From assembly GCA_002781985.1 (NCBI GenBank), contig PFGP01000125.1, positions 1 to 36,595 of the forward strand: a stretch of 36,595 bases of DNA, in the 5' to 3' direction. This stretch comes from Candidatus Taenaricola geysiri. GTDB taxonomy: Bacteria; Omnitrophota; Gorgyraeia; Taenaricolales; Taenaricolaceae. The first letter of the stretch is position 1. Each line of letters begins with the position of its first letter. Below the pieces are notes generated by a model, which was given only the letters and a program-made list of their open reading frames with translations, had not been told where the DNA came from and did no database searches. A program made the translations under genes and the position numbers. This document shows, in pieces, positions 12,194 to 36,595 of this stretch.

Positions 12194-12202
12194 ATAATCA
12201 AA

Positions 12203-12290: not shown

Positions 12291-12307
12291 TAGATAACAT
12301 TAATTTA

Positions 12308-12337: not shown

Positions 12338-12358
12338 ATTAAGACATCCTTTAAAGAG

Positions 12359-15895: not shown

Positions 15896-15899
15896 AGAT

Positions 15900-22780: not shown

Positions 22781-23176
22781 ATGGCGGAATTAAAAGATTT
22801 ATTTCAGAGCGCAGACTGGAAGGCGGAGAAACATGCCCCGGTAATAGACGCGCCGGAAAATATTAAAAAGGGCGAATTTTTTAAAATAACGGCAACCGTT
22901 GGCAAAAGTATAGCGCATCCAAACAAAACAGAACATCATATAGCGTGGATAGAGGTTTATTTTCAGGCAACAGGCGAAAAGTTTCCGTACCAGATAGTCA
23001 GGGCCGATTTCACAGCGCATGGCGCTTCAGCTCAGGGGCCTGACACAAGCAGTATTTATACGTACCCGGAAGTTTCGGTTAGTTTTAAGACAGACAAGCC
23101 GGGCGCAATATACGCATCAAGCTATTGCAATATACACGGGCTATGGCAGGGATTGAAAGAGATAAAAATAGGTTAA
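22781..23176 (+). CDS. sor: Superoxide reductase, 1Fe type (neelaredoxin-like)
   Basis: The EKHAPVI, HPNKTEHHIAWIE and CNIHGLW motifs supply the His4-Cys iron ligands. The ATG at 22781 is preferred because the listed TTG at 22766 lies within the SD helix. Confidence 0.85.
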   Translation: MAELKDLFQSADWKAEKHAPVIDAPENIKKGEFFKITATVGKSIAHPNKTEHHIAWIEVYFQATGEKFPYQIVRADFTAHGASAQGPDTSSIYTYPEVSVSFKTDKPGAIYASSYCNIHGLWQGLKEIKIG

Positions 23177-23182
23177 AATTAT

Positions 23183-23881
23183 ATGAAGCCGCAGAAAGCC
23201 ATTGTTGTAAGTGTAATAAAAAGGGCAGAGTATGTAAGGAGCCTGCGTTTTTTACCGGAGCAGCAGTTGCCTTTTAAGGCAGGCCAGTTTTTACGCCTTG
23301 AAATCGGAGAAAATAAGTTAAAGAGATATCTTTCGATTTCAAATTCTCCCACAGAGACAGGATATTTAGAGGTTACAAAGAAGCTTACAGGCAGCGATTT
23401 TTCAAAAGCGCTTGATGGTTTAAAATCAGGCGATACTGTGTTTATTGAGTATCCTATGGGTAGTTTTATCCTTGATGAGAAGCCGTTGAAAATAGCCTTT
23501 CTTTCAGGCGGTATAGGCATTACTCCGATAAGAAGTATGATAAAGTACGCCACTGATAAAAAACTCGACTTTAACATAGCTTTGCTATATGTGAATAAAA
23601 CAGTGGATGATATAGTGTTCAGGCAGGATTTTGAGGATATGCAAGCAGCAAATCCGCAATTTAAACTTGTAAATGTGCTTAGCGAGCCTGCAGGCAGCAT
23701 AGATTGTAAAATAGGCAGAATAGATAGCCATATAATAGAGGAAGCTATACCTGATTTTGCTGAGAGAAGATTTTATATATGCGGACCGCCGGAGATGGTT
23801 AGCGCAATGAAAAATATACTGCTAAATGAATTGCATATGCCGACAGAGGCTGTTGTAACGGAAAATTTCCAAGGTTATTGA
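23183..23881 (+). CDS. FNR-like FAD/NAD(P)-binding oxidoreductase
   Basis: 232 aa with an RxYS-type FAD motif (KRYLSIS), plus GGIGITP and ICGPP motifs. Confidence 0.8.
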   Translation: MKPQKAIVVSVIKRAEYVRSLRFLPEQQLPFKAGQFLRLEIGENKLKRYLSISNSPTETGYLEVTKKLTGSDFSKALDGLKSGDTVFIEYPMGSFILDEKPLKIAFLSGGIGITPIRSMIKYATDKKLDFNIALLYVNKTVDDIVFRQDFEDMQAANPQFKLVNVLSEPAGSIDCKIGRIDSHIIEEAIPDFAERRFYICGPPEMVSAMKNILLNELHMPTEAVVTENFQGY

Positions 23882-23883
23882 GC

Positions 23884-23912
23884 TTGAATTTTTACGCGTA
23901 ACATTGTATAAT
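23884..23912 (+). promoter_or_regulatory. Sigma-70-type promoter of the ZIP transporter gene (near-leaderless)
   Basis: TTGAAT (23884-23889), a 17-nt spacer, then TATAAT (23907-23912). The ATG at 23921 is only 8 nt downstream and there is no SD. Confidence 0.6.
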
Positions 23913-23920
23913 AATTAACC

Positions 23921-24661
23921 ATGACCCTCCTATATATAATAATAAGCATATCCATAGTAAGCCTTGTATCTTTAATAGGCATATTCACGCTTTTTATAAA
24001 AAAGCAGACATCCCTTGATAAAATCCTTTTTATACTGGTAAGTTTTGCCATAGGCTCGCTTTTAGGGGCTGCATTTCTTGATATATTGCCTGAGGCATTT
24101 GATGTAGCAGGCGAAAATATTTTCGTTTCCGTGCTTTTTGGTATAATGTTGTTTTTTATCATGGAGAAATTTCTGTTTTGGTATCATTGTCATAAGGGCG
24201 ACTGTGATATTCATACATTCAAATATATGAACCTTATAGGCGATGGCATACATAATTTCTTAGACGGCATGATAATAGCCACGGCGTTTATAACAAGCCG
24301 GTCATTGGGCATAATCACAACTATTGCAATACTGCTACATGAGATACCTCAGGAATTGGGTGATTTTGGCATATTGTGTTACGGAGGTTTTAGCAGGATG
24401 AAGGCATTATTCTACAATTTTTTGACAGCGCTTACAGCGTTCTTGGGCGCTTTTATTGTTTATATTTTTGCTGCCAGAATAGAGGGGCTTACCAGTCATA
24501 TATTAGGTTTTGCAGCAGGCGGATTTATATATATAGCCTGCACAGACCTTATGCCTGAGCTGGGAAAAGAGATTAACCCGAAAAAGGCGTTGAAGCAGCT
24601 CATTTTTATATCTTTAGGCATAGCTTTGATCTGGGGCGGTAAACTGATATTTCATAATTAA
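23921..24661 (+). CDS. ZIP-family divalent metal transporter
   Basis: 246 aa, multi-TM, with the [13 protein letters not shown] signature. Confidence 0.8.
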
Positions 24662-24671
24662 AGTAGTTGTT

Positions 24672-24833
24672 ATGAAAAAATACAGATGTACGATTTGTAA
24701 TTATATATATGACCCTGCAAAGGGAGATCCTGATAACGGCGTAAAACCAGGCACTGCCTTTGAAAATATTCCTGATACATGGGTTTGTCCGGAGTGCGGC
24801 GCAGGAAAAGATCAGTTTGTAATGGAAGGATAA
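24672..24833 (+). CDS. rub: Rubredoxin (53 aa; absent from the ORF track)
   Basis: Translation is [53 protein letters not shown], with the two CxxC pairs and the aromatic core of rubredoxins. The TAA stop lies 1 nt before the FDP start. Confidence 0.9.
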
Positions 24834-24834
24834 T

Positions 24835-26034
24835 ATGAAGCCTGTAACAATAGCAAATGATGTTTACTGGGTAGGCGCAATCGACAGGAATCTTAAACGT
24901 TTCCATGGTTATACATACACTGTAGCCAGAGGCACTACTTATAACTCTTATCTTATAATGGATGATAAGATTACGCTGGTAGATGCAGTATATGCGCCTT
25001 TTGCCAAGGAGTGGATAGACAATATAAAAAGCATAATAGATCCCGCGAAAATAGATTATATAGTAGTCAACCATCTTGAAACAGATCACACTGGTTCCTT
25101 GCCTGAACTTGTTAAACTTTGCCCAAAGGCAAAGCTTTACAGCACAGCCAAGTGCAAAGAAGGGCTTTTAAAGAATTACGATATTCCTTCTGACATGGTG
25201 CATGTAGTAAAAACAGGCGATAAACTGAACATAGGAAAAAGAAACCTGGATTTTATAGAGGTACCTATGATTCACTGGCCTGACAGCATGTTTACTTATT
25301 GCGCTGAAGACAAAATCCTGTTTTCAAACGACGCTTTTGGCCAGCATTACGCTACAAGCGAAAGATTTGACGACGAGGTTTCCCGGGATATACTGATGGC
25401 TGAAGCGATAAAGTATTACGCTAATATACTGTGGCCTCTTGCGCCTGTAATACTTAAAAAACTGGAGGATGTTAAAAAATTGGGCATAAAGATAAATGTT
25501 TTGGCAACAAGCCACGGTATAATATGGCGTAAAAATGTTTCAAAGATAATAGACGCGTATGTGTTGTGGTCGCAAAATAAGTCAAAACAAAAAGTAACTG
25601 TTATATTTGACAGTATGTGGGGTTCAACCGAAATCATGGCTGGAAAAATAGCCGATGCTATAAAAGACAGCGGTGTGGACGTCGCGTTGTTTAATGTTAA
25701 TAAAACATCCCTGACGGAAATAATCGCAGAGATGTTTGATTCAAAGGGTTTTATTATCGGTTCATCAACTCATGATAATGATATGTTGCCTACTATGGCA
25801 GGGTTTTTATCTTTTTTAAAAGGCCTTAAACCGAAAAATAGGATTGCCGCGGCATTCGGTTCGTATGGCTGGTCAGGAGGAGCGGTAGTTTCAATAGAAA
25901 AAGTTTATAAAGAATTAGGCCTTGAAATTATTCAGCCGTCTGTATCCGTTAAACATGTGCCTGACGAAAACGATAAAAAGGCGTGTTATGATTTCGGGAT
26001 GAGTTTCGCAAAACTCATAAAAAGTAAAATATGA
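24835..26034 (+). CDS. fprA: Flavodiiron protein (rubredoxin:oxygen/NO oxidoreductase type)
   Basis: 399 aa. It combines a metallo-beta-lactamase-like domain carrying the HLETDH diiron motif with a C-terminal flavodoxin-like domain. A rubredoxin gene lies immediately upstream. Confidence 0.9.
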   Translation: MKPVTIANDVYWVGAIDRNLKRFHGYTYTVARGTTYNSYLIMDDKITLVDAVYAPFAKEWIDNIKSIIDPAKIDYIVVNHLETDHTGSLPELVKLCPKAKLYSTAKCKEGLLKNYDIPSDMVHVVKTGDKLNIGKRNLDFIEVPMIHWPDSMFTYCAEDKILFSNDAFGQHYATSERFDDEVSRDILMAEAIKYYANILWPLAPVILKKLEDVKKLGIKINVLATSHGIIWRKNVSKIIDAYVLWSQNKSKQKVTVIFDSMWGSTEIMAGKIADAIKDSGVDVALFNVNKTSLTEIIAEMFDSKGFIIGSSTHDNDMLPTMAGFLSFLKGLKPKNRIAAAFGSYGWSGGAVVSIEKVYKELGLEIIQPSVSVKHVPDENDKKACYDFGMSFAKLIKSKI

Positions 26035-26489
26035 AGCTCAATGAAGATGTGATAGATTTTTTTAATAAACAAAACTTTGTGATTGTATCTACCATAGATA
26101 AAAATGCAGCCCCGCATTCTTCCTGTAAAGGCATAGTAAAAATAGATCCCAAGGGAATTATATATCTTCTGGATCTTTATAAAGGCAAAACGCGAGAAAA
26201 TCTCGCGAATAATAACAAAACAAGCTTAACAGCAGTTGATGAGCATAAATTTAAGGGGTATTGCCTTAAGGGTACAGCCAGTGAAATTGCGGCGGCGGAT
26301 ATTGATGCGGATGTTGCGGATGAATGGAAAAAAAAGATAACCCAGAGGATAACGCACAGGCTGATTAAGAATATTCACGGCGAGAAAGGCCACCCATATC
26401 ATCCTGAAGCGCAAATGCCGCGCCCGGAATATATTATCAGGATGGATGTGGAAGAAGTTATTGACCTTACGCCGCAGCATTTAAAATAA
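26031..26489 (+). CDS. Pyridoxamine-5'-phosphate-oxidase-like FMN-binding split-barrel protein
   Basis: 152 aa. The sequence character and context suggest the family, but I can point to no unique motif. Confidence 0.55.
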   Translation: MKLNEDVIDFFNKQNFVIVSTIDKNAAPHSSCKGIVKIDPKGIIYLLDLYKGKTRENLANNNKTSLTAVDEHKFKGYCLKGTASEIAAADIDADVADEWKKKITQRITHRLIKNIHGEKGHPYHPEAQMPRPEYIIRMDVEEVIDLTPQHLK

Positions 26490-26502
26490 CAGGAGAAAAT
26501 AT

Positions 26503-26739
26503 ATGGCCAATACAGTAATGGTTTATAGCACGCCTACGTGCCCGTATTGCATACGAGTTAAGCAGTTTCTTAAAGATAATAATGTTGCTTATCAAGATAT
26601 AGATGTTTCATCTGACCAGGCAAAGGCAGAAGAGATGACATCAAAGTCAGGACAGCTCGGCGTGCCGGTTATTGACATAAACGGGCAGGTTATAGTTGGA
26701 TTTGATAAAGGAAAGATAAAAAAGGCTTTGGGTTTATGA
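26503..26739 (+). CDS. Glutaredoxin-like (Grx/NrdH-like) small redox protein
   Basis: 78 aa with a CPYC active site in the YSTPTCPYC context and GVPVI...G..IVGFD. Confidence 0.8.
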   Translation: MANTVMVYSTPTCPYCIRVKQFLKDNNVAYQDIDVSSDQAKAEEMTSKSGQLGVPVIDINGQVIVGFDKGKIKKALGL

Positions 26740-27650
26740 CAGAAATTTTTGATTTGATTATTATCGGCGCCGGGCCGGCGGGTATAACCGCCAGTGTTTA
26801 TGCTGCGCGTAAGAGGATGAATTTTATAGTAGTTACAGGCGATATAGGCGGCCAGACCGTATGGAGCGGCGATGTAGAAAATTATACGGGCTATCAGTTT
26901 ATAACAGGCCCGGAACTTGCCGCGAAATTTGAAGAGCATATGCGCCAGTATGGTATAGAGGCAAGAGAAACGGAGTTTGTCAGCGATATCCAAAAATCAG
27001 GCGGCATAATTTCTGTAAAGACCAATAAAGGCGCCTACCAGACAAAAACACTGATTATAGCTTCCGGTAAAAAATCAAAAGAATTAAATGTGCCAGGAGA
27101 AAAAGAGTTTAAAAACAAAGGCCTTACTTATTGCGCGACATGCGACGGCCCGCTTTTTTCCGGCAAAAACGTTTCAGTTATAGGCGGCGGAAATTCCGCC
27201 CTTGACGCGGCGCTACAACTTGTTAAAATAGCAAAGCATACCTACATTATTAATATAACACCTGCTTTGGGTGGCGACGCTGTAATGCGGGCTAAAGTAG
27301 AAGAAAGCCCGTCGGTGACGATATTTAATAATACCCAGGTATCTGCTGTGTTGGGCGATAAGACAGTAACAGGCATTAGGATAAAAGATAATAAAGGCAA
27401 AGAGGATTTAGTGGCAGTGGAGGGGATTTTTGTTGAGATAGGACTTGTACCAAATTCTGATTTTGCCAGGAACATTGTAAAAAATGAACAAGGCGAAATA
27501 AAAGTAAACTGCCACAATGAAACAAATATTCCCGGCATATTCGCCGCAGGTGATGTTACAGATGTGCCGGAAAAACAGATTGTGATAGCAGCAGGAGAGG
27601 GCTCAAAAGCAGCATTAAGCGCGTTTAAATATTTGGCGAGAAAAAAATAA
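26736..27650 (+). CDS. Thioredoxin-reductase-like flavoprotein lacking the canonical NADPH Arg motif
   Basis: GAGPAG, CATCDG (redox disulfide), GGGNSALD and AAGDV motifs are present. The position of the HRRxxFR motif reads NITPALGG instead. Confidence 0.85.
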   Translation: MTEIFDLIIIGAGPAGITASVYAARKRMNFIVVTGDIGGQTVWSGDVENYTGYQFITGPELAAKFEEHMRQYGIEARETEFVSDIQKSGGIISVKTNKGAYQTKTLIIASGKKSKELNVPGEKEFKNKGLTYCATCDGPLFSGKNVSVIGGGNSALDAALQLVKIAKHTYIINITPALGGDAVMRAKVEESPSVTIFNNTQVSAVLGDKTVTGIRIKDNKGKEDLVAVEGIFVEIGLVPNSDFARNIVKNEQGEIKVNCHNETNIPGIFAAGDVTDVPEKQIVIAAGEGSKAALSAFKYLARKK

Positions 27651-27730
27651 GGAAGTTTTTCGTCCCTCGCCACTAAGTGAGATAGCTGGTGGCTCGGGAC
27701 AATTTTTACAAATGAGAGAGGAGGTAAAAA
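27651..27730 (+). repeat. Two-hairpin intergenic leader element, copy 7 (SD in the H2 loop, start codon in the H2 stem)
   Basis: GGAAG, TTTTC, then H1 at 27662-27700 (inner helix GCCAC:GTGGC). H2 is CAATTTTTA (27700-27708) paired with TAAAAATTG (27725-27733). GGAGG at 27720-27724 lies in the loop. The TTG start at 27731 lies in the 3' arm. Confidence 0.75.
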
Positions 27731-27946: not shown

Positions 27947-27975
27947 TTGACAATAAAGCCCCGCAATGTTATATT
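27947..27975 (+). promoter_or_regulatory. Putative promoter of the Arg-rich protein gene
   Basis: TTGACA (27947-27952), a 17-nt spacer, then TATATT (27970-27975). The -10 element lies in the loop of the ferredoxin terminator hairpin. Confidence 0.45.
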
Positions 27976-27995
27976 TAGTTGCGGGGCTTATTGTT
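27957..27995 (+). terminator. Terminator-like hairpin after the ferredoxin gene
   Basis: AGCCCCGCAA (27957-27966) pairs with TTGCGGGGCT (27979-27988), followed by TATTGTT. Confidence 0.55.
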
Positions 27996-28367
27996 ATGGA
28001 AAAAAACTGTGTAATCTGCAATAAAATATTTACGCCTACCAAATACAGGCCACAGGCCCAGGAGGTCTGCTCGGATCCTGTTTGTCAGCACAAAAGACAG
28101 CTCGAAAACATGAAAAGATGGCGCCGTAATAATCCTCATTACTTTAGGCAGGATGAGATAAGAGGCGTTTACTGGAGAGAACTATACCGCCGCAGGATAC
28201 GAAGGTGGCGTAAGGAGCACCCTGAATATTTTAAGAAATACAGGGACAGGTACAAGGCCCAGCACAGGGAATATATGCGTGAATACATGAGAAGATACAG
28301 GAATGTGAAGAAAAGAATGTTGCAGCAGGCAGAGCCGCAGCCGCCAATCAGCGATATTTTGTCTTGA
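27996..28367 (+). CDS. Hypothetical zinc-ribbon plus Arg/Tyr-rich basic repeat protein
   Basis: N-terminal CVIC...C..VC, then repeats of the W/Y-R-x-x-(N/H)P-x-YF type (RWRRNNPHYFRQ, RWRKEHPEYFKKYR, HREYMREYMRRYR). The ATG at 27996 is preferred over 27966, which lies in the hairpin and upstream of the predicted TSS. Confidence 0.5.
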   Translation: MEKNCVICNKIFTPTKYRPQAQEVCSDPVCQHKRQLENMKRWRRNNPHYFRQDEIRGVYWRELYRRRIRRWRKEHPEYFKKYRDRYKAQHREYMREYMRRYRNVKKRMLQQAEPQPPISDILS

Positions 28368-28460
28368 CACTAGTAATATATATATGATAAATTGTAGTAA
28401 AATTAACGCACTAGAATTCCCCCGACAAAATGGCAGAAAGAAAAAGAAAGGAAATTTTCT

Positions 28461-30530
28461 TTGACCAGGCGTGTATTTTTCTTTTTAATCTTTTTGTTGG
28501 CAATAACGCTACCGGCCTTTGCCAGGCCTTCAAGTTCATCTGATTTTCTTATCCTGCTTGATATTACCGCGCAAAATAACCCGGATTCAGCCAGAATAAC
28601 CATATATACAAATAAATTTCTTGAATATGTAGATTACGAGCTTCAGGATGGCTCGGGCGGCATTGTTTTTGACCCTACAGAACCTTTATATGTAAATATA
28701 GAAGGCCTGAATTTTGATAAAAGCGGCATTATCAGCGGAATGAAATTTGCCAAAAGCGCTATCAAGCAGGATGATTTACCCGAGGTGTTGAAGGCGGGTT
28801 TTTACCCGTTGGATTATCTGGTTATAAATTTAAAACTTAAGTCCGGTTACAGGATATCGCAGCGGGCGAATATGATTGTTTTGGATATAGGAAATACTGC
28901 GATGCCGCTGCCTTCAGAATTTGTGCCAAGTTTTACATTAAAGCCTGCGCCTGTGCCAAAAAAAGAGGTTGCTTCAGGAGCAGGTTTGCTGCCGGAAGAT
29001 ATTGCAGCGGAATTTATAAAAACAAAACAAGGCAAAAAACAAGATAAGAAAAAAGAAAAGAAATCAAAAAAGAAACAAGAGCCGTTGGTTGAAAAAGTGT
29101 CCTTGCCGCTCCCGGCTTTAAGCCCGCAAGAGGCCGTGGCAATGGATTTTAAGCGCCTTAGGGAGGAGATTTTATCCAGGTCGCTTTCCGGCAAACCATC
29201 TTTAAAATTGCCGCAAGGCAGAAATGTACTTGGCTTTAATCAGTGCGTTGAAATAGGAACCACTAATTTTCTGCCGCTTGTTATTGCCGAAGAGGAAATG
29301 AGGCTTGGCGATATGAAAATCAATGAAGCCAAGCGCGGGATTTATCCTACAGCCACCGCAAAATATACTACAACAGACGGAGAAACGCTTGGGGTTGAGT
29401 TTACCGAAAAATCTTATGGCATGCAGGTTGAGCAGCCTCTTTATTACGGAGGCCGGCTTAAATTAACATTAAAACAGGCCCAGATAAACCGTCAGGTTGC
29501 CCAGTCGAAATTCGACAAAGCTGAAGCCGATGTGGTGTCAAAGATTACAGAGGCATTTTACGGCCTTGCTACAGCGCAACTTAATCTCGAGGACCAGAAG
29601 GAATTATTCGTAAAATCAAAAGAGATGCTTGCGCTTGCCGAGAAAAAATATAATCAGGACCTTACAACGAAACTGGAGCTGTTAAATGTCCAATCGCAAT
29701 GCAACCAGATAGATTATCAGCTTGCTGTTGCAGCCAAGGATGTTGATATTGCAAAGATAAGCCTTCTTCAGGCAATGGGCACAGACCCTCAGGCTGACAT
29801 TCGAGCCGATATGCCGCTTGATTACGCCGAGAATATTATAGATATTAACAAATGCCTTTTACTTGCATACCAGAACAGGCCTGAGTTGCATATGAATGAA
29901 CTTCTGCGGGAGGCCGCGGAATATGAAGAGAAGATAGCCAGGTCAAAGGATGATTTTAAGGTTGATTTTACAGGATTTGTCGGCCAGTCGGGCGGCGCGT
30001 ACAAAACAGAACCGTTAAATATGGGCAGTGACTGGTATATGGGATTTAAGGCGTCAAAGCCATGGCTTGGCAATACGGGTTCTTATAATTATACGCAGAA
30101 TAAAACAAGCCCTAAATTAGGCCAAAGCACAAGGACAGGAGGTACTAGCCAATCTCTTGAATTCGGCATACTGAATAATATGACGGCTTATTCTGAAAAG
30201 CAGTCCGCCTTGATAAGCAAGCTTAAAGCGGAGAATGAACTTGTTGAAATAGAAAAGGCGATAAACACCGAGGTGCGCGAAACCTACAGCAGCTATGAAA
30301 AAGCTATTATGCAGATACAGAATACGCAGGAGAAGATAAGGTTCAGGCAGGAAGAACTTAATACATTGAAGGCGCAGTCGGAAATAAACGAGGCCGCCTT
30401 GTCGCAGGTGCTTGACGCGATGGTAAAGCTTAATGATGAAAAGGCATTATACCACCAGGCTATAGCAAGCTACAAGACCGCTTTGGCGAATTTAAACAAG
30501 GCAGTGGGGCTGATAGGGTATTTCAACTAA
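28461..30530 (+). CDS. Outer-membrane efflux protein (TolC/OMF family) with a ~270-aa N-terminal extension
   Basis: 689 aa. It has a signal peptide (LPAFA/RP), a beta-rich N-terminal domain (tentatively AMIN-like), a Lys-rich linker (KQGKKQDKKKEKKSKKKQE), then two OEP repeats. Confidence 0.8.
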   Translation: MTRRVFFFLIFLLAITLPAFARPSSSSDFLILLDITAQNNPDSARITIYTNKFLEYVDYELQDGSGGIVFDPTEPLYVNIEGLNFDKSGIISGMKFAKSAIKQDDLPEVLKAGFYPLDYLVINLKLKSGYRISQRANMIVLDIGNTAMPLPSEFVPSFTLKPAPVPKKEVASGAGLLPEDIAAEFIKTKQGKKQDKKKEKKSKKKQEPLVEKVSLPLPALSPQEAVAMDFKRLREEILSRSLSGKPSLKLPQGRNVLGFNQCVEIGTTNFLPLVIAEEEMRLGDMKINEAKRGIYPTATAKYTTTDGETLGVEFTEKSYGMQVEQPLYYGGRLKLTLKQAQINRQVAQSKFDKAEADVVSKITEAFYGLATAQLNLEDQKELFVKSKEMLALAEKKYNQDLTTKLELLNVQSQCNQIDYQLAVAAKDVDIAKISLLQAMGTDPQADIRADMPLDYAENIIDINKCLLLAYQNRPELHMNELLREAAEYEEKIARSKDDFKVDFTGFVGQSGGAYKTEPLNMGSDWYMGFKASKPWLGNTGSYNYTQNKTSPKLGQSTRTGGTSQSLEFGILNNMTAYSEKQSALISKLKAENELVEIEKAINTEVRETYSSYEKAIMQIQNTQEKIRFRQEELNTLKAQSEINEAALSQVLDAMVKLNDEKALYHQAIASYKTALANLNKAVGLIGYFN

Positions 30531-30640
30531 TTCCCTCGCCGCGCCTCGTGATAAGAGGCGGCTCGGGATAAAATTTTGCCGAACACGGCATCCCGTGAAC
30601 GGGACAAATCGAGATTACTGGAAAATTTCAGAGGTGAAAA
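30531..30640 (+). repeat. Two-hairpin intergenic leader element, copy 8 (long form with 27-nt insert)
   Basis: H1 is at 30531-30569 with a degenerate outer helix (TTCCC...GGGAT). The insert at 30578-30605 lies in a 42-nt block identical to copy 2. The SD is GAGG at 30631-30634 and the ATG is at 30641. Confidence 0.75.
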
Positions 30641-31954
30641 ATGGCCGCATTGATAAAAAAAAGATTTAAGGGTTGGGGGGTTGTGCTTATTGTTATTGCC
30701 GCTCTGGTTATTATGTTTGTTGTTTACGCGGCGCCGATAGCAGAGCATTTATGGAAAGTTTTTCCAGGTATCGCAAATTTTTCTTTTGTTTCCAATCTTT
30801 TAAAAGACAGGGTAATACAAAAGTCAGGCGCTCAGTCCGCAGGCCAAGAGCAGGAAGGCGGCGCAGCCGGAGCCGAAGAAAAACAGAGGCCGGTGTCAGT
30901 TATAGTATTTAAAGCGGTAAAAAGCGATTTTGAAGATACTCTTCTAGCCATGGGCACAATAAAGGGCGTCAGAGAAATAGAGCTCAGGTTCGAGGCAAAC
31001 GGCGTTATAGACGCCATTAATTTCAGAGAAGGCGATTTTATAAAAAAAGGCGATGTAGTTGCGGTTTTGAACCAACAGGACGCCATATTAAAACTGGAAT
31101 ATTCGCAATCAAAGCTTAAAACAAGCCAGACGCAGATGCTTACGGCCAAGAAAAAACTTGAGATACATCAGAAGTTATACGAGTTGGGCACCATTATTAA
31201 ATCAAAACTCGAAGAAGTGGCTCTTGAATATGAAAACACAAAAAGCCAGGTGACATCCGCTGAAAAAGAGGTGGCGTTTGCCAAACAGGAAGTGCAAAAG
31301 GCTTATATATCTTCTCCTATTGACGGTATTATCGGCGAGCGCGAGGCAGAGGCAGGCGAATTTGTTACGTCAAACACAAAGATAGCAACTGTTATAGATG
31401 TGTCGAGTGTTTATGCTGAAGTCGGAATTATTGAAAAGGATTTGCAGAAGATAGCCCTGGATATAGAGGCAACAGCTACTGTAGACGCGTATCCTGATGT
31501 GGAATTTAAAGGAAAGATCGATAATATACTTCCTACAATAGAAGGAAAATCAAGAACAATAACCTGCAGGATTAAAATAGATAATCAGGATGGCATGCTT
31601 TTGCCGGGGATGTTTGTGAGGGCGACTATTTTTGTATTTGGCCAGAAAGATGTAATAGTGCTGCCAACCCCGAATAATACACTGCGCGATACGGATAATG
31701 ACGGAAAATTTGATTCTGTTTTTGTGGTTGATCAGGATAACGTCGCGCATCTTAAGCCTGTGGAAATAAGTTATCTTACTACTGATAACGCGGTGGTTGT
31801 TTCGGGGCTTGAAGAGGGCGAGCAGGTTGTTACAGAGGCAAGGGCTGAGCTTAGCGATGGCGCGCCGGTTGAAGTTTTGGAGACGCAGGAGGGGCTTAAG
31901 CCTCAGGAAGAGCTTCCGGGAGCAGGCGGAGAAAAAGAGATGGTGATACAGTAG
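30641..31954 (+). CDS. RND/ABC-type efflux periplasmic adaptor (MFP, HlyD_D23-like)
   Basis: 437 aa with an N-terminal TM anchor, a coiled-coil hairpin and barrel-sandwich and beta-barrel segments (YISSPIDGIIGER, LPGMFVRATI). Confidence 0.85.
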   Translation: MAALIKKRFKGWGVVLIVIAALVIMFVVYAAPIAEHLWKVFPGIANFSFVSNLLKDRVIQKSGAQSAGQEQEGGAAGAEEKQRPVSVIVFKAVKSDFEDTLLAMGTIKGVREIELRFEANGVIDAINFREGDFIKKGDVVAVLNQQDAILKLEYSQSKLKTSQTQMLTAKKKLEIHQKLYELGTIIKSKLEEVALEYENTKSQVTSAEKEVAFAKQEVQKAYISSPIDGIIGEREAEAGEFVTSNTKIATVIDVSSVYAEVGIIEKDLQKIALDIEATATVDAYPDVEFKGKIDNILPTIEGKSRTITCRIKIDNQDGMLLPGMFVRATIFVFGQKDVIVLPTPNNTLRDTDNDGKFDSVFVVDQDNVAHLKPVEISYLTTDNAVVVSGLEEGEQVVTEARAELSDGAPVEVLETQEGLKPQEELPGAGGEKEMVIQ

Positions 31955-32052
31955 CGTAGCTGGAAAAATTTGCCCCTCGCCGCAAAACGCGATTAGAAGC
32001 GGCTCGGGACAATTTTACTAAACGAGATAGCAGGTAAAATCGGAGGTGTAAT
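31955..32052 (+). repeat. Two-hairpin intergenic leader element, copy 9
   Basis: A partial module-2-like TAGCTGGAAAAATTT is followed by H1 at 31972-32010 (GCCCC/TC/GCCGC ... GCGGC/TC/GGGAC). H2 is at 32010-32017 paired with 32035-32042. GGAGG is at 32042-32046 and the ATG at 32053. Confidence 0.75.
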
Positions 32053-32730
32053 ATGGAAGAGAAAAAGCAGGCAGCACAGCAGCCTTCACCAAAAAAGAGA
32101 AACGATTCAGTTATTTTAATTATATTGGCTGGGATATTAATAGTTATTTTTGCTTTTATGGTTGCTAAATTGTTGAATACAAGCAAGGCCTCAAAGACAG
32201 AATCGAAAACCGTGCAAGCTTCCGAACCTGCTGTGCAAGAAAAAGTGATGCCTTATCCTGAAGAGCCAGTATCTATGCCTGATGCAGATATAACCGAAGG
32301 CGAGGCTGATATGGAGCAGCTGCCTGCAGAATACGCAAAGGCGCCAAGCGATGCGGAAGGTTTTTTTCAGACAGGAGAAGATCTTTATTACAAAGGGGAT
32401 TTTGATGCGGCAATAGAGAGTTTTAAAAAGGCAATCGAGCTTGACTCGCAATATGCTGACGCGTATTGCGAGATGGGCGTTTCATTTATGGAAAAAGCCG
32501 ATTGGGATACTGCTATAGCCCAGCTTAACAAGTGTATAGAAATAAACCCGAATCAACCAAAGGCGCAGTATGCAATAGCGGTTAGCTACGCCAGAAAACC
32601 AAGCCCTGATGTTGCGGCTGCAAGAGAGCATTTTGAGATATCAAAAAAATTAGGTTTTGTTTATCCGCAATGGTTTGAGGATTTTTTAAAGCGCCTTGAA
32701 GCAGGCGAGCGCTTCCCAGGTCAAAACTAG
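32053..32730 (+). CDS. Membrane-anchored TPR-repeat protein
   Basis: 225 aa with one N-terminal TM helix, an acidic linker and about three TPR units (AIESFKKAIELDSQYADAYCEMG...AIAQLNKCIEINPNQPKAQYAIA). Confidence 0.75.
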   Translation: MEEKKQAAQQPSPKKRNDSVILIILAGILIVIFAFMVAKLLNTSKASKTESKTVQASEPAVQEKVMPYPEEPVSMPDADITEGEADMEQLPAEYAKAPSDAEGFFQTGEDLYYKGDFDAAIESFKKAIELDSQYADAYCEMGVSFMEKADWDTAIAQLNKCIEINPNQPKAQYAIAVSYARKPSPDVAAAREHFEISKKLGFVYPQWFEDFLKRLEAGERFPGQN

Positions 32731-32800: not shown

Positions 32801-35800
32801 ATGTCGTTACCCGATTTTTCGCTAAGACGGCCTATAACAGTCATAATGGTTTTTATAGGCGTAATTCTGCTGGGGTTTATCTCATGGAGCCGCCTTCCGC
32901 AGGAGCTTTTTCCTCCTATTACCTATCCGCAGCTTACCGTAGTTACCACATATAAAGACGCAGCCCCCGAAGAAATAGAAATACTAGTCACGAAACCCTT
33001 AGAAGAAACCATAGGCACAGTAAGCGGCCTAAAGCGCATAAGCTCTGCCTCCAAGGAAGAGACTTCTATAATAACCGCGGAATTCAACTGGGGCACAAAT
33101 ATGGATTTCGCTGCCCTTGGCGTAAGAGAAAAGATAGATCTTGTAAAAGAACGCCTGCCAAGGGGCTCTGAAGAGCCGGTTGTAATGAAATACAATCCGT
33201 TTGATCTGCCGGTTATGGTTTTAAATATTACATCGGACCTGCCGCCTGCTGAGGCAATGCAGTTTGTGCGCAAGGTTATAAAAAACGAGCTTGAAAAAAC
33301 AGACGGCGTGGCAGTAGTGCAGCTCTCAGGCGGAAGGGAGCGCGAGATACTTGTTGAGGTGGATCAGGGCCGGCTTCAGGCAGCCGGCATTTCTGTTGTT
33401 GCTTTGAGCGAGGCCTTAAACAAGGCAAACCTTAATTACCCGGCAGGCACTATAGAGGAATCTTTTTATGAATACCTGATAAGGACCATAGGAGAGTTTA
33501 AGGCGGTAAATGAAATAAGAGACGTCCCTGTTGTTGTGGACGAGATACCTGTCAACCCCAGAGAAGAAAATCCTCAGGAGCAGGGTATCCGGCCGCCAAA
33601 AGACAAAAAAACCGAAAAGAGGCTCATCCTTATAAAAGATGTCGCGGTAGTGAAAGATACGCTGCGGGAGCGTTCCAGTATATCAAGGTATAACGGCAAA
33701 GATAATATTTCCATTTCAGTAATAAAACAGGCAGGCGCTAATACTATCTGGGTCGCCAATAATGTCAGAGAGACAATCGGAGAATTAAAAGCCAGCATGC
33801 CTGCTCATGTAAAACTTAATATTGCATATGATCAGTCAAAATTTATAAAAGGCGCTGTTGGCGGCGTAAGAGATGCCGCTGTGCAAGGTGGATTTCTGGC
33901 GTTTATAGTGCTTTATATGTTTTTACGGCGATTCAGTTCGTCTCTGATAGTTACCGCCAGTATTCCGATATCCATACTTGGCGTATTCAGCTTGATGTAT
34001 TTTTCAAATATATCGCTTAATATGATTTCTTTAGGCGGCTTAGCGCTTGGCGTGGGCATGCTCGTAGATAACGCCATTGTTGTTATGGAGAATATTTCAC
34101 GCTACAAGGAGGCCGGTAAAAATCCAAAGGATGCCAGTGTTGCCGGCGCTAAAGAAGTGGGTTCTGCGATAACAGGCTCTACGCTGACAACAGTAGCGGT
34201 GTTTCTGCCGATGGTATTTGTTATCGGCGTTGCCGGCCAGTTATTTAAGGAGCTTGCATTTACAGTGGTAGCGTCATTAATGGTTTCATTGATTGTGGCC
34301 TTGACATTGATCCCTATAATGGTGTCAAAAGAAGCGCTTAATAAATCAAAAAATAATATACTGCCGGTTTCATTTAAAAAGTATCTGGCGCTTACTGAAA
34401 CGTTTTTTGTTAAATTAAGTTTATCGGTTAAAGAATCTGTTTTGTTTATCAAACTCAAAGAAGCGCTTTCCCTTGAGAACGCGAAAAGGGTTGTATCTTC
34501 GTCGTTGAGATTTTTCCTAAAGCACAGGATAATATGCCTGCTCTTGGTTTTTCTTGTATTTTTCATCAGCATATTTTTTCTGATAAATATGGATTGGGAA
34601 TTATTGCCAAGGGTTGATCAGGGCCAGTTTATAATCAAGGTTGACCTGCCTCCCGGCACACGGCTTGAGGTAACGGATTCGGTAGTCAAAAAAATAGAGA
34701 AAGAGCTTTTTTCTCTGCCTGAGGTAAGCGATATAACGGTTACTATAGGCTCAAGCAGGGAAAAGATCTCAGAAGGCCCTATGATAGAGACGCTTGGGTC
34801 GAATCAGTCACAGATTATGGTTTTACTTAAATCTTTGGCAGCGTATAAAAAGACAAAATATCCGCTGTTACAGTTTTTGATTGAACCTTTTTCCGTTAAA
34901 GACCCAAAGAAGGTCCGCACTCGTTCAACAGGCGAAGTGCTGCAGAGTTTGAAATCGTCTCTTGAAAAAGACAATCTTTTCGGCGCCGATGTCCAATATA
35001 TATTACAAGAAAGCGTTTTTCAGAATGCCTTTAGTAACGCCGCGCCTGTGGTTATAGAAATAAAGGGGCATGACCTGTTGAAAATAAAGGCCATATCCGA
35101 CGATGTTGAAAAGAACCTGGAAAAAATAAAAGGCGTCTATAGCGTAAGGTCTTCTTTTATAAAGCCCGCGCCCGAAGCAAAGGTATATGTCAAAAAAGAC
35201 AGGGCAGCCGCTTATAACCTGTCGGTAAGCGATATTGCCCTTACTTCGCAGACAGCCATGAAAGGCTATGTTGCCACAAAATATAAGGAAGCAGGCAGGG
35301 AAATTGATGTAAGAGTGCGCTTAAGGCCGAAAGACCGTTCCGATATTAATAAGATAAGAAGGCTTCTTGTACATTCGCCGCTTGATATCGACGTGCCTCT
35401 TGCCGAGGTTGCTTATATGAAAATAGGCAAAGGCCCCAGCCAGATACAGCGCCTGGCGCAACAGAGGGTTATAATGGTGTCAGCCGGCATATATAAAAGG
35501 CCATACAAAGAGGTGGTCGAAGATATTAATATTTTTCTCGCCCGGATGAAGTTAAGCCTGCCGCCTGATTACAGCGCAAAACTTACAGGTGAAAATCTGC
35601 AGATGAAAGAGTCGTTTGACAGCCTGCGTTTTGCGCTTATACTTTCTCTGTTTCTGGTTTACATGATTATGGCCGCGGAATTTGAATCGTTGTGGCAGCC
35701 GTTTATAATATTATTTACATTTCCGCTGTCTTTGATAGGCGTATGTTTCGGGTTATGGGTTACAAACACGGCTATTTCTATAATGGTTTTACTGGGCATT

Positions 35801-36541
35801 ATAATCCTGGGAGGCATAGTCGTAAATAACGGCATAGTGCTGGTTGAATATGTGAATCTGCTGCGCGGCCGCGATAATTTTAACCTTCACGACGCGCTTA
35901 TAGAGGCAAGCCAGATGCGGCTTCGGCCTATATTAATGACAGCGCTTACCACTGTGCTAGGCCTTTTACCTTTGGCAATAGGCCTGGCTGAGGGCGCTGA
36001 GATTCAGATTCCGATGGCAGTAACTGTTATGTCCGGTTTGACTATTTCAACTTTTCTGTCTTTAATAGTTATTCCTTTATTATATTTAAGTTTTGAAAAG
36101 TCTCTTGCTGCTGCCATGGGTTTATTTTTCGGCGCGCCACAACAGGTAAGGCTTGAATTTGAACCTGAATATAAGCCCAAACCCAAGCCCGAATATAAGA
36201 CATCAACTATAATACACCTGCCTCACAGGCGCGAGCCTTCGCCGCAGATATCTGCTATAAATCTGCCGCATCAGGAGGAAGCGCCATCTGAGCGCGATGA
36301 AAGCCGCATCTTTTTTAAAGACGTGCTTCCCGATAAATACAAGTCTATCGAACTTACCGACAGGCAGAAAGAACTTATTTTATATTTAATACAGAATGAC
36401 AGGATAACGCGCCCGGAATATATAATAAAATTTAATGTTTCTGTTGCCACCGCCGCAAGAGATATAAAGGATATGCTTGATAGAGGGCTGATAAAAACAT
36501 GCGGCCCCCAGGCAGTGGGCAGATATTATGAACTCGCCTAA
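32801..36541 (+). CDS. RND efflux permease with internal insertions and a C-terminal winged-HTH domain
   Basis: 1246 aa with AcrB-type motifs (FSLRRPITVIMVF, VDNAIVVMEN, VNNGIVLVEY). About 140 aa follow the last TM helix, ending in LTDRQKELILYLIQNDRITRPEYIIKFNVSVATAARDIKDMLDRGLIKTCGPQAVGRYYELA, which is DeoR/Fic-C-terminal-like wHTH. Confidence 0.9.
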   Translation: MSLPDFSLRRPITVIMVFIGVILLGFISWSRLPQELFPPITYPQLTVVTTYKDAAPEEIEILVTKPLEETIGTVSGLKRISSASKEETSIITAEFNWGTNMDFAALGVREKIDLVKERLPRGSEEPVVMKYNPFDLPVMVLNITSDLPPAEAMQFVRKVIKNELEKTDGVAVVQLSGGREREILVEVDQGRLQAAGISVVALSEALNKANLNYPAGTIEESFYEYLIRTIGEFKAVNEIRDVPVVVDEIPVNPREENPQEQGIRPPKDKKTEKRLILIKDVAVVKDTLRERSSISRYNGKDNISISVIKQAGANTIWVANNVRETIGELKASMPAHVKLNIAYDQSKFIKGAVGGVRDAAVQGGFLAFIVLYMFLRRFSSSLIVTASIPISILGVFSLMYFSNISLNMISLGGLALGVGMLVDNAIVVMENISRYKEAGKNPKDASVAGAKEVGSAITGSTLTTVAVFLPMVFVIGVAGQLFKELAFTVVASLMVSLIVALTLIPIMVSKEALNKSKNNILPVSFKKYLALTETFFVKLSLSVKESVLFIKLKEALSLENAKRVVSSSLRFFLKHRIICLLLVFLVFFISIFFLINMDWELLPRVDQGQFIIKVDLPPGTRLEVTDSVVKKIEKELFSLPEVSDITVTIGSSREKISEGPMIETLGSNQSQIMVLLKSLAAYKKTKYPLLQFLIEPFSVKDPKKVRTRSTGEVLQSLKSSLEKDNLFGADVQYILQESVFQNAFSNAAPVVIEIKGHDLLKIKAISDDVEKNLEKIKGVYSVRSSFIKPAPEAKVYVKKDRAAAYNLSVSDIALTSQTAMKGYVATKYKEAGREIDVRVRLRPKDRSDINKIRRLLVHSPLDIDVPLAEVAYMKIGKGPSQIQRLAQQRVIMVSAGIYKRPYKEVVEDINIFLARMKLSLPPDYSAKLTGENLQMKESFDSLRFALILSLFLVYMIMAAEFESLWQPFIILFTFPLSLIGVCFGLWVTNTAISIMVLLGIIILGGIVVNNGIVLVEYVNLLRGRDNFNLHDALIEASQMRLRPILMTALTTVLGLLPLAIGLAEGAEIQIPMAVTVMSGLTISTFLSLIVIPLLYLSFEKSLAAAMGLFFGAPQQVRLEFEPEYKPKPKPEYKTSTIIHLPHRREPSPQISAINLPHQEEAPSERDESRIFFKDVLPDKYKSIELTDRQKELILYLIQNDRITRPEYIIKFNVSVATAARDIKDMLDRGLIKTCGPQAVGRYYELA

Positions 36542-36543
36542 AT

Positions 36544-36595
36544 ATGGGACTTCCTAAAATATCAATAAATAGGCCTATAGCAGTGCTTATGCTTT
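36544..36595 (+). CDS. Second RND permease, N-terminal 17 codons only (runs off the window)
   Basis: The ATG lies 2 nt after the previous stop. MGLPKISINRPIAVLML matches the conserved RND N-terminus (x-I-x-RP-[IV]-x-x-x-M). Confidence 0.5.
   Translation, partial: MGLPKISINRPIAVLML

Follow-up and report, generated by a model that had tools for sequence, protein, structure and literature searches.

The open reading frame at 32801–36541 (+) encodes a full-length AcrB-type RND permease (RND1) that continues through a linker into a C-terminal winged helix-turn-helix (wHTH) domain, and this fusion is not a singleton, being conserved phylum-wide in Omnitrophota. It lies in the window, the whole stretch of 36,595 nucleotides from Candidatus Taenaricola geysiri (contig PFGP01000125.1) analyzed here. 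As judged from sequence, the case is evenly balanced for RND1 being a pump-integrated, membrane-tethered one-component transcription regulator, with putative DNA binding and a putative target. RND pumps are among the best-studied bacterial transporters, and to our knowledge their expression has always been described as under the control of separate soluble repressors or two-component systems. A pump subunit with its own DNA-binding domain, spread over a phylum, would be a new link of transport to gene expression and, if it is a regulator, a new class of membrane-tethered regulator.

Architecture of RND1 and authenticity of the fusion

RND1 is an uninterrupted ORF of 1246 aa (Table 1). The Pfam family ACR_tran (PF00873) matches residues 5–1098 over positions 3–1020 of the 1021 of the model (E 3.9e-230), the hydropathy scan gives the 12 segments of an AcrB/HAE1-like 12-TM protein, and the sequence is alignable to the solved MdtB, CmeB, and AcrB chains through TM12. 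Beyond the ACR_tran match, 147 aa follow in frame, in agreement with the initial annotation, which had described a tail continuing after the last TM helix and had quoted the wHTH segment exactly. The linker of the window protein contains 11 Pro, 10 Glu, 7 Lys, and 7 Ser among its 84 residues; across the family, linkers range from 10 to 383 aa (median of 95), with 20% Pro and 16% Glu, and neither their sequence nor their length is conserved. The protein ends 4 residues past the wing. In AcrB structures the C terminus is cytoplasmic, and because the domain comes after TM12, the wHTH would likewise be located on the cytoplasmic side.

Table 1. Features of the RND1 cluster in the window and their supporting evidence
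Feature	Coordinates	Strand	Evidence or remarks
Small conserved protein	27966..28367 (likely true start ATG 28007)	+	Zinc-ribbon-like CxxC...C..C N-terminus
Sigma-70-like promoter 5' of OMF gene	28364..28393	+	TTGACA-N18-TAAATT; overlapping TATGAT
Outer-membrane factor (OMF), TolC-like, 689 aa	28461..30530	+	Pfam OEP, E 1.3e-37
Periplasmic adaptor (MFP), 437 aa	30641..31954	+	Pfam HlyD_D23, E 1.3e-31; HlyD_3
TPR protein, 225 aa, N-terminal hydrophobic segment	32053..32730	+	Pfam TPR families
RND1 permease core, residues 1–1100	32801..36100	+	ACR_tran match; 12 hydrophobic segments; two large periplasmic loops
24-aa charged insertion, periplasmic loop 1, residues 246–269	33536..33607	+	Alignment
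Insertion before TM7, residues 518–550	34352..34450	+	Mainly window lineage
Insertion in periplasmic loop 2, residues 682–705	34844..34915	+	Mostly window lineage; also L002
Cytoplasmic linker, 84 aa, residues 1101–1184	36101..36352	+	Pro/Glu/Lys/Ser-rich
wHTH domain, 62 aa, residues 1185–1246	36353..36538	+	Profile matches, AF2 model, family alignment
Recognition helix VATAARDIKDMLD	36443–36481	+	Wing GPQAVGRYY next
RND2 start (MGLPKISINRPIAVLML..), tail-less partner permease	36544..36595	+	Cut by window end

An artifactual origin (a missed stop or frameshift, chimeric assembly, or a recent chance fusion now in decay) could be suspected from the marginal single-sequence Pfam score of the window tail and from the wHTH of this lineage being the least basic. 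However, no stop or frameshift was found, the RND1 copies in two other metagenome assemblies (L208 and L209) show 1 mismatch in 3741 nt, the domain is present in frame, at the extreme C terminus, in 118 of the 120 closest homologues (48–70% identity) despite linkers of such different length, and all 11 invariant wHTH residues are kept in the window copy. Given the near-identical copies and the in-frame domain of the homologues, an assembly artifact is dismissed, and the comparative data already refute this reading, whose probability we consider negligible. None of the refuting conditions listed in the initial annotation came true: the frame is open, the profiles return an HTH match, and the orthologues carry the two parts fused, not split.

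An internal start for a soluble wHTH was not found in the window sequence, where no in-frame Met occurs beyond residue 1106. An AGGAGG sequence is present at about 36275, inside the linker-coding region, with no start codon seen at a usable distance in the window.

No account of such a fusion was found in the literature on Omnitrophota efflux and HTH proteins, on giant genes and genomes, or on membrane-bound transcription regulators, in line with the initial annotation, which knew of none.

Conservation of the gene cluster

A word-based search with the tail alone returned one partial protein only, and the wHTH family was recovered by a whole-protein query and an exhaustive HMMER search. In species-representative genomes, 114 places were confirmed, and 80 were inspected. 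A fixed cluster that comprises a long OMF, the MFP, the RND1-wHTH fusion, and then a tail-less permease, RND2, is found in about 80 species-level genomes, nearly all carrying an Omnitrophota or PVC-group MAG label. The OMF/MFP/RND gene order is kept in most of the 80 loci, as in an operon with adaptor and OMF.

The conserved pairing with RND2 and the phylum-wide spread of the fusion had been overlooked in the initial annotation. RND2 starts 2 nt past the RND1 stop codon in the window; 76 loci have an RND2 gene after RND1, and the gap between the two has a median of 4.5 nt. In L209, where its sequence continues for 470 aa, it matches ACR_tran with an E value of 4.8e-115. RND1 and RND2 are thus two adjacent paralogous permease genes, as in heteromeric pairs. 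MdtB/MdtC and MuxB/MuxC are likewise encoded back to back with an adaptor in the operon. Among solved structures, MdtB matches the TM4 region of RND1 best, and the NCBIfam matches of RND1 include the models for MdtB and MdtC, although, unlike RND1, neither MdtB nor MdtC has a cytoplasmic domain. RND1 and RND2 may form a mixed trimer. MdtABC is regulated by a separate two-component system, BaeSR.

Regarding the other genes, the OMF is unusually long, with about 270 N-terminal aa that match no family, and its position is conserved. The TPR gene is limited to some lineages, also being present in L001, L207, L065, L078, and L085. The small protein has an Arg/Lys-rich helical remainder (..YMREYMRRYR) after its N terminus and has no family match in Pfam or NCBIfam. 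In several lineages the extended cluster begins with its gene, and its homologues lie 5' of the OMF gene in L001, L002, L005, L007, L009, L020, L027, L034, L035, L039, L053, L054, L073, and L207. From its sequence, this zinc-ribbon/basic protein is a candidate alternative nucleic-acid binder. A giant gene is often the next one after the cluster.

Sequence, fold, and charge of the wHTH domain

Alone, the window tail matches HTH_24 (PF13412) marginally, with 22.5 bits against a cut-off of 21.9 (E 8.8e-5), and scores 19.6 bits against HTH_DeoR (PF08220), whose gathering score is 21. Among the aligned family members, HTH_DeoR is matched at E<1e-3 by 43 of 43 (best 2e-10) and HTH_24 by 36 of 43. 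These matches, together with a match to the Fic protein 8cil in sequence and fold, bear out the earlier assignment of the tail to the DeoR or Fic-C-terminal type of wHTH. The AF2 model of the domain is confident (pLDDT of 92.1) and has an H-H-H-beta-beta topology, that is, three helices and a wing (H7-19, H24-31, H35-47, E51-54, and E62-65). Foldseek TM-scores of about 0.8 were obtained with the wHTHs of MarR, AdcR, ZitR-DNA, AspA-DNA, and Fic2, and the model corresponds to MarR, AdcR, and CRP-type DNA-binding domains. Also, the family profile matches the CRP HTH (E 1e-3), with an invariant Arg aligned on R185 of CRP.

Eleven residues are invariant in the family (R, R, S, T, R, D, G, P, G, R, and Y), and they lie on helix 3, at the tip of the wing, and at the N-terminal ends of the helices. 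The domain is basic across the family (median pI of 10.0, median net charge of +6), and that of the window is weakly so (pI 8.9, net +2), the lowest of all.

The helix-2/helix-3 signature of the RND1 domain (..ITR.EY....S..TA.RDL..L...G.I...G) corresponds to PF08220/PF13412, and the weaker library matches are of the LNERQ..A..Y.KE.G.ITN.EYQ type. The RND1 domain is of the same kind as the C-terminal wHTH of Fic proteins and of the 'HATPase_c_4/AlbA_2' putative regulators; nonetheless, its tail has no DeoRC sensor, Fic, ATPase domain, or dimerization element, and is fused to a transporter. A DeoR-family regulator was rejected, there being no DeoRC match and the HTH being C-terminal. Also rejected was a MarR-family regulator, as only the wHTH core aligns (TMt of about 0.4 of MarR chains), without the flanking dimerization helices. 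From its sequence, the tail would be a wHTH that binds DNA as a monomer and is held by a long disordered tether.

There is one split case, L012: here the wHTH (30 bits in the profile search) belongs to a protein of its own, which has an N-terminal TM helix and a coiled coil of about 300 aa and whose gene still lies within an RND/OMF/MFP cluster. Two other proteins, P0134 and P0154, are built in the same way, with a TM helix, a coiled coil, and the wHTH. Because the split L012 domain is again membrane-anchored, the tethering of the wHTH to the membrane looks to be under selection.

Insertions, proton relay, and subfamily of the permease core

The canonical RND paralogue of the window (15879–19007, 1042 aa) has no wHTH, as previously observed, and the three insertions reported for RND1 relative to it are all real by alignment. 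The one at residues 246–269 is present in every RND1 examined, in all lineages, and is found neither in RND2 nor in the canonical paralogue.

With respect to the AcrB proton-relay set (D407, D408, K940, and R971), RND1 has VDN in TM4, where D407 is kept and D408 is replaced by N, and VVNN in TM10, where K940 is replaced by N, with the R971 motif RLRPILMT of TM11 kept; the full set is therefore not present. The VDN/VVNN pattern is common to RND1, RND2, and the canonical paralogue of the window, and hence it is a subfamily trait and not evidence of RND1 inactivity. A dead sensor subunit was rejected on these grounds, nothing in the altered relay being RND1-specific. None of the NCBIfam RND subfamilies (RND_permease_1/2, MdtB, MdtC, AcrB, and CusA) reaches its curated cut-off with RND1; the best score is that of RND_permease_2, 636 bits against a cut-off of 1250, and the equivalog models are far below theirs.

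A candidate operator element

In most lineages, tandem copies of a 10-bp element, AACCGT[A/C]TCA, are located at the cluster promoter, and the element is also found 5' of the giant gene that often comes after the cluster. The sequence ACCGTATC is present in 33 of the 43 non-redundant regions 5' of the OMF gene, compared with 9 at most in shuffles, usually in 2–7 copies that are often direct repeats at 9–11 bp. Over 1.27 Mb there are 85 site clusters, 58 of them 5' of the OMF gene and 16 directly after the cluster. The sites abut or overlap predicted promoters, overlapping the core promoter in two clades; at the OMF promoter their position is activator-like in L033 and repressor-like in L003 and L009. 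Moreover, the wHTH is the only recognizable DNA-binding domain encoded in the cluster across all lineages, and the element may be its target. The transporter-regulator or DNA-tether function suggested in the initial annotation would thus find circumstantial support, in relatives, from the element and from this sole DNA-binding domain of the cluster. Another binder at the element, for example, an unlinked regulator, is possible, and OmpR/PhoB response regulators, too, typically have direct repeats at 10–11 bp beside the -35.

Neither the element nor any other convincing shared repeat was found in the cluster intergenic regions of the window, L001, and L207, despite the retention of the wHTH in the three. 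The promoter layout 5' of the OMF gene is conserved in L001 and L207 and, in the window, comes without a AACCGTATCA element. The canonical element is lacking in the window clade and in L012, the two lineages whose wHTHs are divergent; L012 has a different repeat, which occurs 5' of the wHTH gene and again 5' of the OMF gene. The operator of the window lineage, if any, would then differ from the canonical element. A covariation of wHTH residues with the operator was considered and discarded: the A/C variant tracks genome GC and the two groups do not differ in the recognition helix; therefore, there is no residue-level covariation. Hints of covariation are left at the clade level only, for the window clade and L012.

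In a clade with the order RND1-RND2-MFP, no element is found 5' of RND1, and in its place there is a conserved leader with a terminator-like hairpin at its end; Rfam gives no match to it at the gathering threshold. When metagenomes were scanned for the tandem element, 120 stretches of mixed GC came up, only 4 of them adjoining the RND cluster, against a chance expectation on the order of 100 (a rough estimate).

Proposed function and alternative roles

According to the proposal of a pump-integrated regulator, RND1 would be a working-type RND permease subunit that probably joins the adjacent RND2 in a mixed pump, together with the MFP and the long OMF. The tethered wHTH would bind short repeated operators at the promoters of its own cluster, and also at those of neighboring envelope or giant genes, so that pump abundance, assembly, or transport state could feed back directly on transcription. 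Functionally this would resemble ToxR, CadC, and BcrR, but on a 12-TM transporter; the coupling of the wHTH to transport is presumed here. The proposal can be tested directly, since the domain has just 62 aa, relatives supply a candidate operator, and a naturally split variant can serve for comparison.

A role other than specific regulation, in which the wHTH would be a docking module for another protein (such as RND2, a cytoplasmic partner, or the small zinc-ribbon protein) or a non-specific DNA binder that localizes or scaffolds the pump, with some other regulator on AACCGTATCA, seems unlikely to us, though it deserves serious consideration. Folds of this type also make protein and RNA contacts, ribosomal eS25 and TFE-alpha being among the Foldseek matches; moreover, the window lineage retains the domain without the element, the cluster encodes a second conserved basic protein, and the long variable Pro/Glu linkers look like spacers. 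However, the invariant residues occupy canonical DNA-contact positions (the N-terminal half of helix 3 and the Gly-Arg of the wing tip), the domain is strongly basic in most members, its nearest sequence and fold matches are bona fide DNA-binding domains, and in the many lineages with the clearest elements no small protein is found within +/-10 kb.

The wHTH could also be a latent transcription factor: when the envelope is stressed or the pump is turned over, proteolysis of the linker would free it to act in soluble form on the same operators, in the manner of SREBP or of the regulated proteolysis of anti-sigma factors. Such a release, which we consider improbable, would fit with the long, exposed, and poorly conserved linkers, accessible to proteases, with the wHTH-only proteins of 59–130 aa in the protein library, and with operators that overlap the core promoter in two clades, as for a classical repressor. 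Nonetheless, many of these short proteins are visibly contig-end fragments, some starting inside TM12, no conserved cleavage motif is seen in the linker, no protease gene is linked to the cluster, and the domain of the split variant is membrane-anchored, not soluble.

Returning to the regulator proposal, its strongest form is that the RND1 tail is a sequence-specific regulator that stays on a working pump and, via tandem AACCGTATCA-type operators, couples the transport or assembly state to the efflux cluster and the adjacent giant genes; taken in full, this form is speculative and rather doubtful. The giant genes of Omnitrophota (>1500 aa, up to >10,000 aa) are thought to serve a predatory or host-dependent lifestyle. 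If the strong form is true, a transporter would act directly as the transcription factor of a lifestyle regulon. In addition, the element shared with the neighboring giant genes offers a first regulatory handle on genes on which current ideas about Omnitrophota biology center.

Comparison with known systems

The winged helix of ToxR sits on the cytoplasmic side of the inner membrane and works on promoters while staying attached (PMC8517210, PMC7496328). ToxR, CadC, and TcpP hold a DNA-binding winged helix at the membrane, as proposed for RND1, the resemblance being functional only: their wHTH is N-terminal and OmpR-type and is combined with one TM helix and a sensor domain in the periplasm, whereas RND1 has a C-terminal wHTH of the DeoR/MarR-like three-helix type on a 12-TM transporter. 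Membership of RND1 in the ToxR/CadC type was rejected for this reversed domain order, the other wHTH class, and the 12-TM transporter. BcrR from Enterococcus faecalis is a membrane-bound one-component regulator of transporter genes (PMC3968067). However, BcrR is not a transporter, having an N-terminal XRE HTH and 4 TM helices, whereas RND1 is one. In the flux-sensing BceAB-BceS system, the transporter itself is the sensor for a resistance operon, but BceB signals via a separate kinase, and no RND pump takes part in either BcrR or BceAB-BceS.

Within the RND superfamily, the MmpL transporters have an extra cytoplasmic C-terminal region; unlike the wHTH-type tail predicted for RND1, their tails are not DNA-binding domains. 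Finally, in the Patched/NPC1 branch, SCAP-SREBP links an RND-superfamily membrane protein to a membrane-bound transcription factor. In this case, the two are eukaryotic and encoded as separate proteins, and it is proteolysis that releases SREBP, whereas RND1-wHTH is one bacterial polypeptide.

The RND permease with its own C-terminal winged helix-turn-helix domain

The initial annotation described an RND permease running in frame into a C-terminal winged helix-turn-helix (wHTH) domain, and this observation is confirmed and extended here. The protein, an AcrB-type permease named RND1-wHTH, is encoded by a single ORF in which residues 5-1098 match the Pfam family ACR_tran over its full length (E 3.9e-230), ahead of an HTH_24 match. 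Its membrane part thus falls within ACR_tran, but outside all named NCBIfam subfamilies. Beyond the TM12 region (..PLLYLSFEKSL), 147 further residues continue in frame as linker and wHTH. The profile search proposed for this tail returned an HTH match: the tail alone narrowly passes HTH_24 (22.5 bits, gathering score 21.9, E 8.8e-5), falls slightly below HTH_DeoR (19.6 bits, gathering score 21) and weakly matches the HTH parts of UlaR and AdcR in NCBIfam. The tail is a DeoR/HTH_24-type wHTH, yet no DeoR, MarR or ToxR-family regulator, because the other defining domains of those families are absent. Also, the three insertions relative to the canonical RND paralogue of the window are real, the one at residues 246-269 being present in all RND1 and in no RND2 (the tail-less partner permease) examined, and those at 518-550 and 682-705 being largely confined to the window lineage.

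A misassembly or missed stop had been a concern. The gene is found in two other metagenome assemblies (L208 and L209) with 1 mismatch in 3741 nt, and among the best 120 homologues of a whole-protein search (48-70% identity, 1068-1519 aa) the wHTH lies in frame at the extreme C-terminus in 118 (phmmer with the window tail, E 1e-11 to 1e-30), the two without it being the shortest proteins of the set; orthologues are thus fused, not split, and the probability that the fusion is an artefact is negligible. Nearly all the named homologues come from Candidatus Omnitrophota/Omnitrophica metagenome-assembled genomes (MAGs). A GTDB scan with one genome per species gave 114 confirmed places, and the 80 kept are labelled Omnitrophota, 'uncultured Planctomycetia' (TPA MAGs), Saelkia, Undivivens and one 'Patescibacteria group' MAG. 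This confirms a phylum-wide, strongly conserved fusion. The 62-aa domain holds 11 invariant residues (family motif LNxRQxxLLxYLKxxxRITRKEYxxxFxISVPTAARDLKELVDKGLIxxxGPxAxGRYYxL), in contrast to the variable linker (10-383 aa, median 95; Pro 20%, Glu 16%); of 43 aligned members, all match HTH_DeoR at E<1e-3 and 36 match HTH_24.

Predicted structure of the wHTH

An AlphaFold2 model built with a 43-sequence alignment predicts the wHTH topology confidently (pLDDT 92.1), with helices 7-19, 24-31 and 35-47 and a two-stranded wing (51-54, 62-65). Comparison with the PDB (Foldseek) gives query TM-scores of ~0.8 for the wHTH cores of MarR, AdcR and ZitR, DNA complexes included, for centromere-binding AspA bound to DNA and for a Fic protein. 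The family profile aligns with the CRP helix-turn-helix (E 1e-3), placing the invariant Arg of 'TAARDL' on CRP R185, a DNA-contacting residue. The invariant positions fall in the N-terminal half of helix 3, at the wing-tip G-R and where the helices start. Family-wide, the domain is basic (median pI 10.0, net +6), the window copy being the least basic (pI 8.9, net +2). Since it comes after TM12 of a 12-TM RND fold, an AcrB-type topology would necessarily place it in the cytoplasm.

The gene cluster

Essentially all sufficiently long loci share a skeleton of TolC-like outer-membrane factor (OMF, 600-900 aa), periplasmic adaptor (MFP), RND1-wHTH (1142-1657 aa) and RND2 (1014-1148 aa), so that RND1-wHTH is consistently paired with a tail-less permease; in a minority the order is RND1-RND2-MFP. 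The RND1-RND2 gap has a median of 4.5 nt (76 loci), and in L209 the gene after RND1 is likewise an ACR_tran permease. This arrangement resembles the paired permeases of MdtBC. There is no sign of RND1 being a non-transporting sensor, because its altered proton-relay pattern (TM4 VDN/VDA/VDS, TM10 VVNN) is common to RND2 and the canonical paralogue.

The exception is locus L012, where both RND genes are tail-less and a separate 410-aa protein with an N-terminal TM helix, a coiled coil of ~300 aa and a wHTH (HTH_24, 30 bits) is encoded between them and the OMF/MFP genes; proteins P0134 and P0154 share this build. Even off the pump, the wHTH thus remains membrane-anchored and in the cluster.

The window OMF, like its relatives, is long compared with the canonical OMF, and its N-terminal ~270 aa have no family match. 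In several lineages the OMF is preceded by the gene for a conserved small zinc-ribbon protein (~110-138 aa, CxxC..CSDxxC N-terminus, very basic C-terminal part, YMREYMRRYR), which matched no family in Pfam or NCBIfam and may bind nucleic acid. Upstream of the efflux cluster lies a set of oxygen-stress genes whose synteny is kept within the window lineage (among them prismane, desulfoferrodoxin, flavodiiron/ODP-flavodoxin, rubrerythrin, glutaredoxin, thioredoxin-reductase-like). In the window-related lineages the gene after RND2 encodes an apolipoprotein N-acyltransferase (Lnt), and genes for several CBM30/CBM9/GH18 proteins come next; these neighbours may be a clue to what the pump does physiologically.

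Positions of the features discussed (window coordinates unless a related locus, L, is named)
Feature	Position	Strand	Remark
Canonical OMF	13749-15026		425 aa
Canonical RND paralogue	15879-19007		1042 aa; classical MarR-OMF-MFP-RND operon
Oxygen-stress cluster	21397-27650; L001 1-4770; L207 28-5054
Small-gene inverted repeat	27947-28000; L207 5110-5170		GCCCCGCAA..TTGCGGGGC; L207 ACCCTCGCAA..TTGCGAGGGT
Small zinc-ribbon/basic protein gene	27966-28367		probable start 28007; first of window gene order
Promoter-like site	28364-28393		ahead of the OMF gene
Long OMF	28461-30530		689 aa; no family match in 28461-29300 region
MFP	30641-31954		between OMF and TPR gene
TPR protein	32053-32730		between MFP and RND1-wHTH
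RND1-wHTH ORF	32801-36541	+	uninterrupted, 1246 aa
RND1 linker	36101-36352	+	residues 1101-1184; Pro/Glu/Lys/Ser-rich
wHTH domain	36353-36538	+	residues 1185-1246; identical to the sequence first quoted
RND2	starts 36544		directly after RND1-wHTH
Lnt gene	L001 16965-18578; L002 16904-18337; L007; L206 10290-11876		after RND2
82-aa two-TM protein	L005 6413-6664; L009 2865-3110; L016 1646-1894; L074 1643-1891
Giant gene downstream of RND2	L003 16918-23636; L005 18506-24443; L009, L015, L020, L031, L035, L039, L053, L064, L078, L079
TTCTGGTTTCTGTAAACTGGTTACTGGTTTCT copies	L012 ~8960-9000, ~10640-10680		in place of AACCGTATCA
CCCTCGCC/GGCTCGGGA copies	11895-11930, 27664-27699, 30533-30568, 31974-32009	same strand
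RND1 leader	L076 ~6330-6480; L081 ~1520-1660; L063, L075, L042, L026		RND1-upstream
c-di-GMP riboswitches	L042 2466-2583, 2657-2769; L076 455-569, 3478-3575; L026 1269-1394		Rfam
TPP riboswitch	12196-12304		before Thi4-family gene 12326-13147
Y1 transposase gene	9296-9949		IS200-like

A candidate operator in the relatives

The 8-mer ACCGTATC occurs in 33 of 43 non-redundant OMF-upstream regions, whereas in shuffles no 8-mer exceeds 9. The full candidate element, AACCGTATCA, usually occurs 2-7 times, frequently as direct repeats that recur every 9-11 bp (for example TACCGTATCATAACCGTATCAATTGACAAAAT in L083 and AACCGTATCAGAACCGTATCA in L022; AACCGTCTCA in the high-GC clade). Across 1.27 Mb of Omnitrophota DNA, 85 clusters of at least 2 sites were counted, of which 58 are OMF-upstream, 16 directly after the gene cluster, 5 inside it and 6 elsewhere. 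Its placement relative to predicted promoters takes three forms: in low-GC clades the sites abut the -35, with centres at about -42/-53 to -60/-71; the L003/L008/L015 clade has them at -23 and +12, with additional upstream copies; and the high-GC clade has them at +8/+20. In L184 and L185 the element also precedes the small zinc-ribbon gene. A further gene of the extended cluster that it precedes encodes an 82-aa two-TM protein (MGKKYKLLE..GGGTPEAP..LLLEIRSKVEKGA; no family matched), present also in metagenome loci L109, L135, L137, L152 and L179. In the high-GC clade this gene belongs to the extended cluster, with the small zinc-ribbon gene on one side and the OMF gene on the other; elsewhere the element stands before it in tandem.

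RND2 has a giant gene downstream in 14 of 54 loci. Counted as giant were ORFs that span 1500 aa or more and those that extend past the end of the locus, with gene calls of up to 7857 and 10590 aa. Clustered AACCGTATCA separates RND2 from the giant gene in 12 of these 14 loci, against 2 of the 40 others (Fisher p = 2e-8), which suggests that the efflux-like system and the giant genes are co-regulated.

The wHTH is the sole recognisable DNA-binding domain encoded in the cluster across all lineages, and direct repeats would suit monomeric domains on the flexible tethers of an oligomeric pump. The element may instead be bound by the small zinc-ribbon protein or by an unlinked regulator. Most contigs returned by a metagenome-wide scan for the tandem element lack the RND cluster, and roughly 100 such hits would be expected by chance. 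The clade of the window, L001 and L207 has a divergent helix-2/helix-3 sequence (ITRPEY, SVATAARDI), and no AACCGTATCA-type element was found in it; its promoter TTGACA-N17/18-TATGATAAATTGTA is conserved, and no repeat was found there. In L012, the other divergent case, an identical 32-nt TTCTGGTTTCTGTAAACTGGTTACTGGTTTCT precedes the separate wHTH gene as well as the OMF gene. This co-variation of domain and element, seen at clade level in two clades only, is suggestive. The A/C variant of the element tracks GC content and no wHTH residue.

Possible function and known analogues

The most likely function, with about an even chance of being correct, is that of a putative pump-integrated regulator that would control transcription of its own cluster and of neighbouring envelope or giant genes. 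A non-regulatory docking or tethering role of the wHTH is clearly less probable, and its proteolytic release as a free factor rather improbable; the remaining probability belongs to functions outside these readings and the artefact. For pump-integrated control, the nearest functional analogues include membrane-integrated regulators such as ToxR and CadC (PMC8517210, PMC7496328) and BcrR (PMC3968067). Transporter-as-sensor systems also belong here, SCAP-SREBP being a more distant analogue. In the literature searched no RND-HTH fusion is described, in agreement with the initial annotation, and the Omnitrophota giant-gene and genome papers searched make no mention of RND or efflux at all. In precomputed Pfam lists, PF00873 already appears alongside PF13412 or PF08220 for these homologues, so the architecture is visible in databases, though undiscussed as far as checked.

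Other elements

Four same-strand copies of CCCTCGCC-N(18-19)-GGCTCGGGA(C/T)AA, against 0 expected in shuffles, constitute a REP-like or MITE-like intergenic element of the window; the OMF-MFP and MFP-TPR spacers hold two of them. An inverted repeat flanks the promoter of the small zinc-ribbon gene in the window and in L207 and is absent in L001; the differences between the two versions are compensatory, pointing to a possible operator or 5' hairpin. In the RND1-RND2-MFP clade, RND1 is preceded by a conserved leader (..AAAGATAGGGAYTGGTAAARCATAAGGGGGTAAGCC..) that closes with a terminator-like hairpin and a T-run shortly ahead of the gene and could act as an attenuator or riboswitch; it matched no Rfam family at gathering threshold. 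Riboswitches of the c-di-GMP-I and c-di-GMP-I-GGC families (above gathering score) occur a few kb upstream of RND genes, and the window carries an ordinary TPP riboswitch (Rfam, 66 bits). A gene similar to the window transposase (Pfam Y1_Tnp) adjoins the RND genes in L004. Finally, P0156 (581 aa), P0186 (469 aa), P0218 (410 aa) and P0124 (2918 aa) combine an N-terminal signal-like segment with 4-6 tandem related wHTHs and, if exported, would be extracytoplasmic wHTH arrays.
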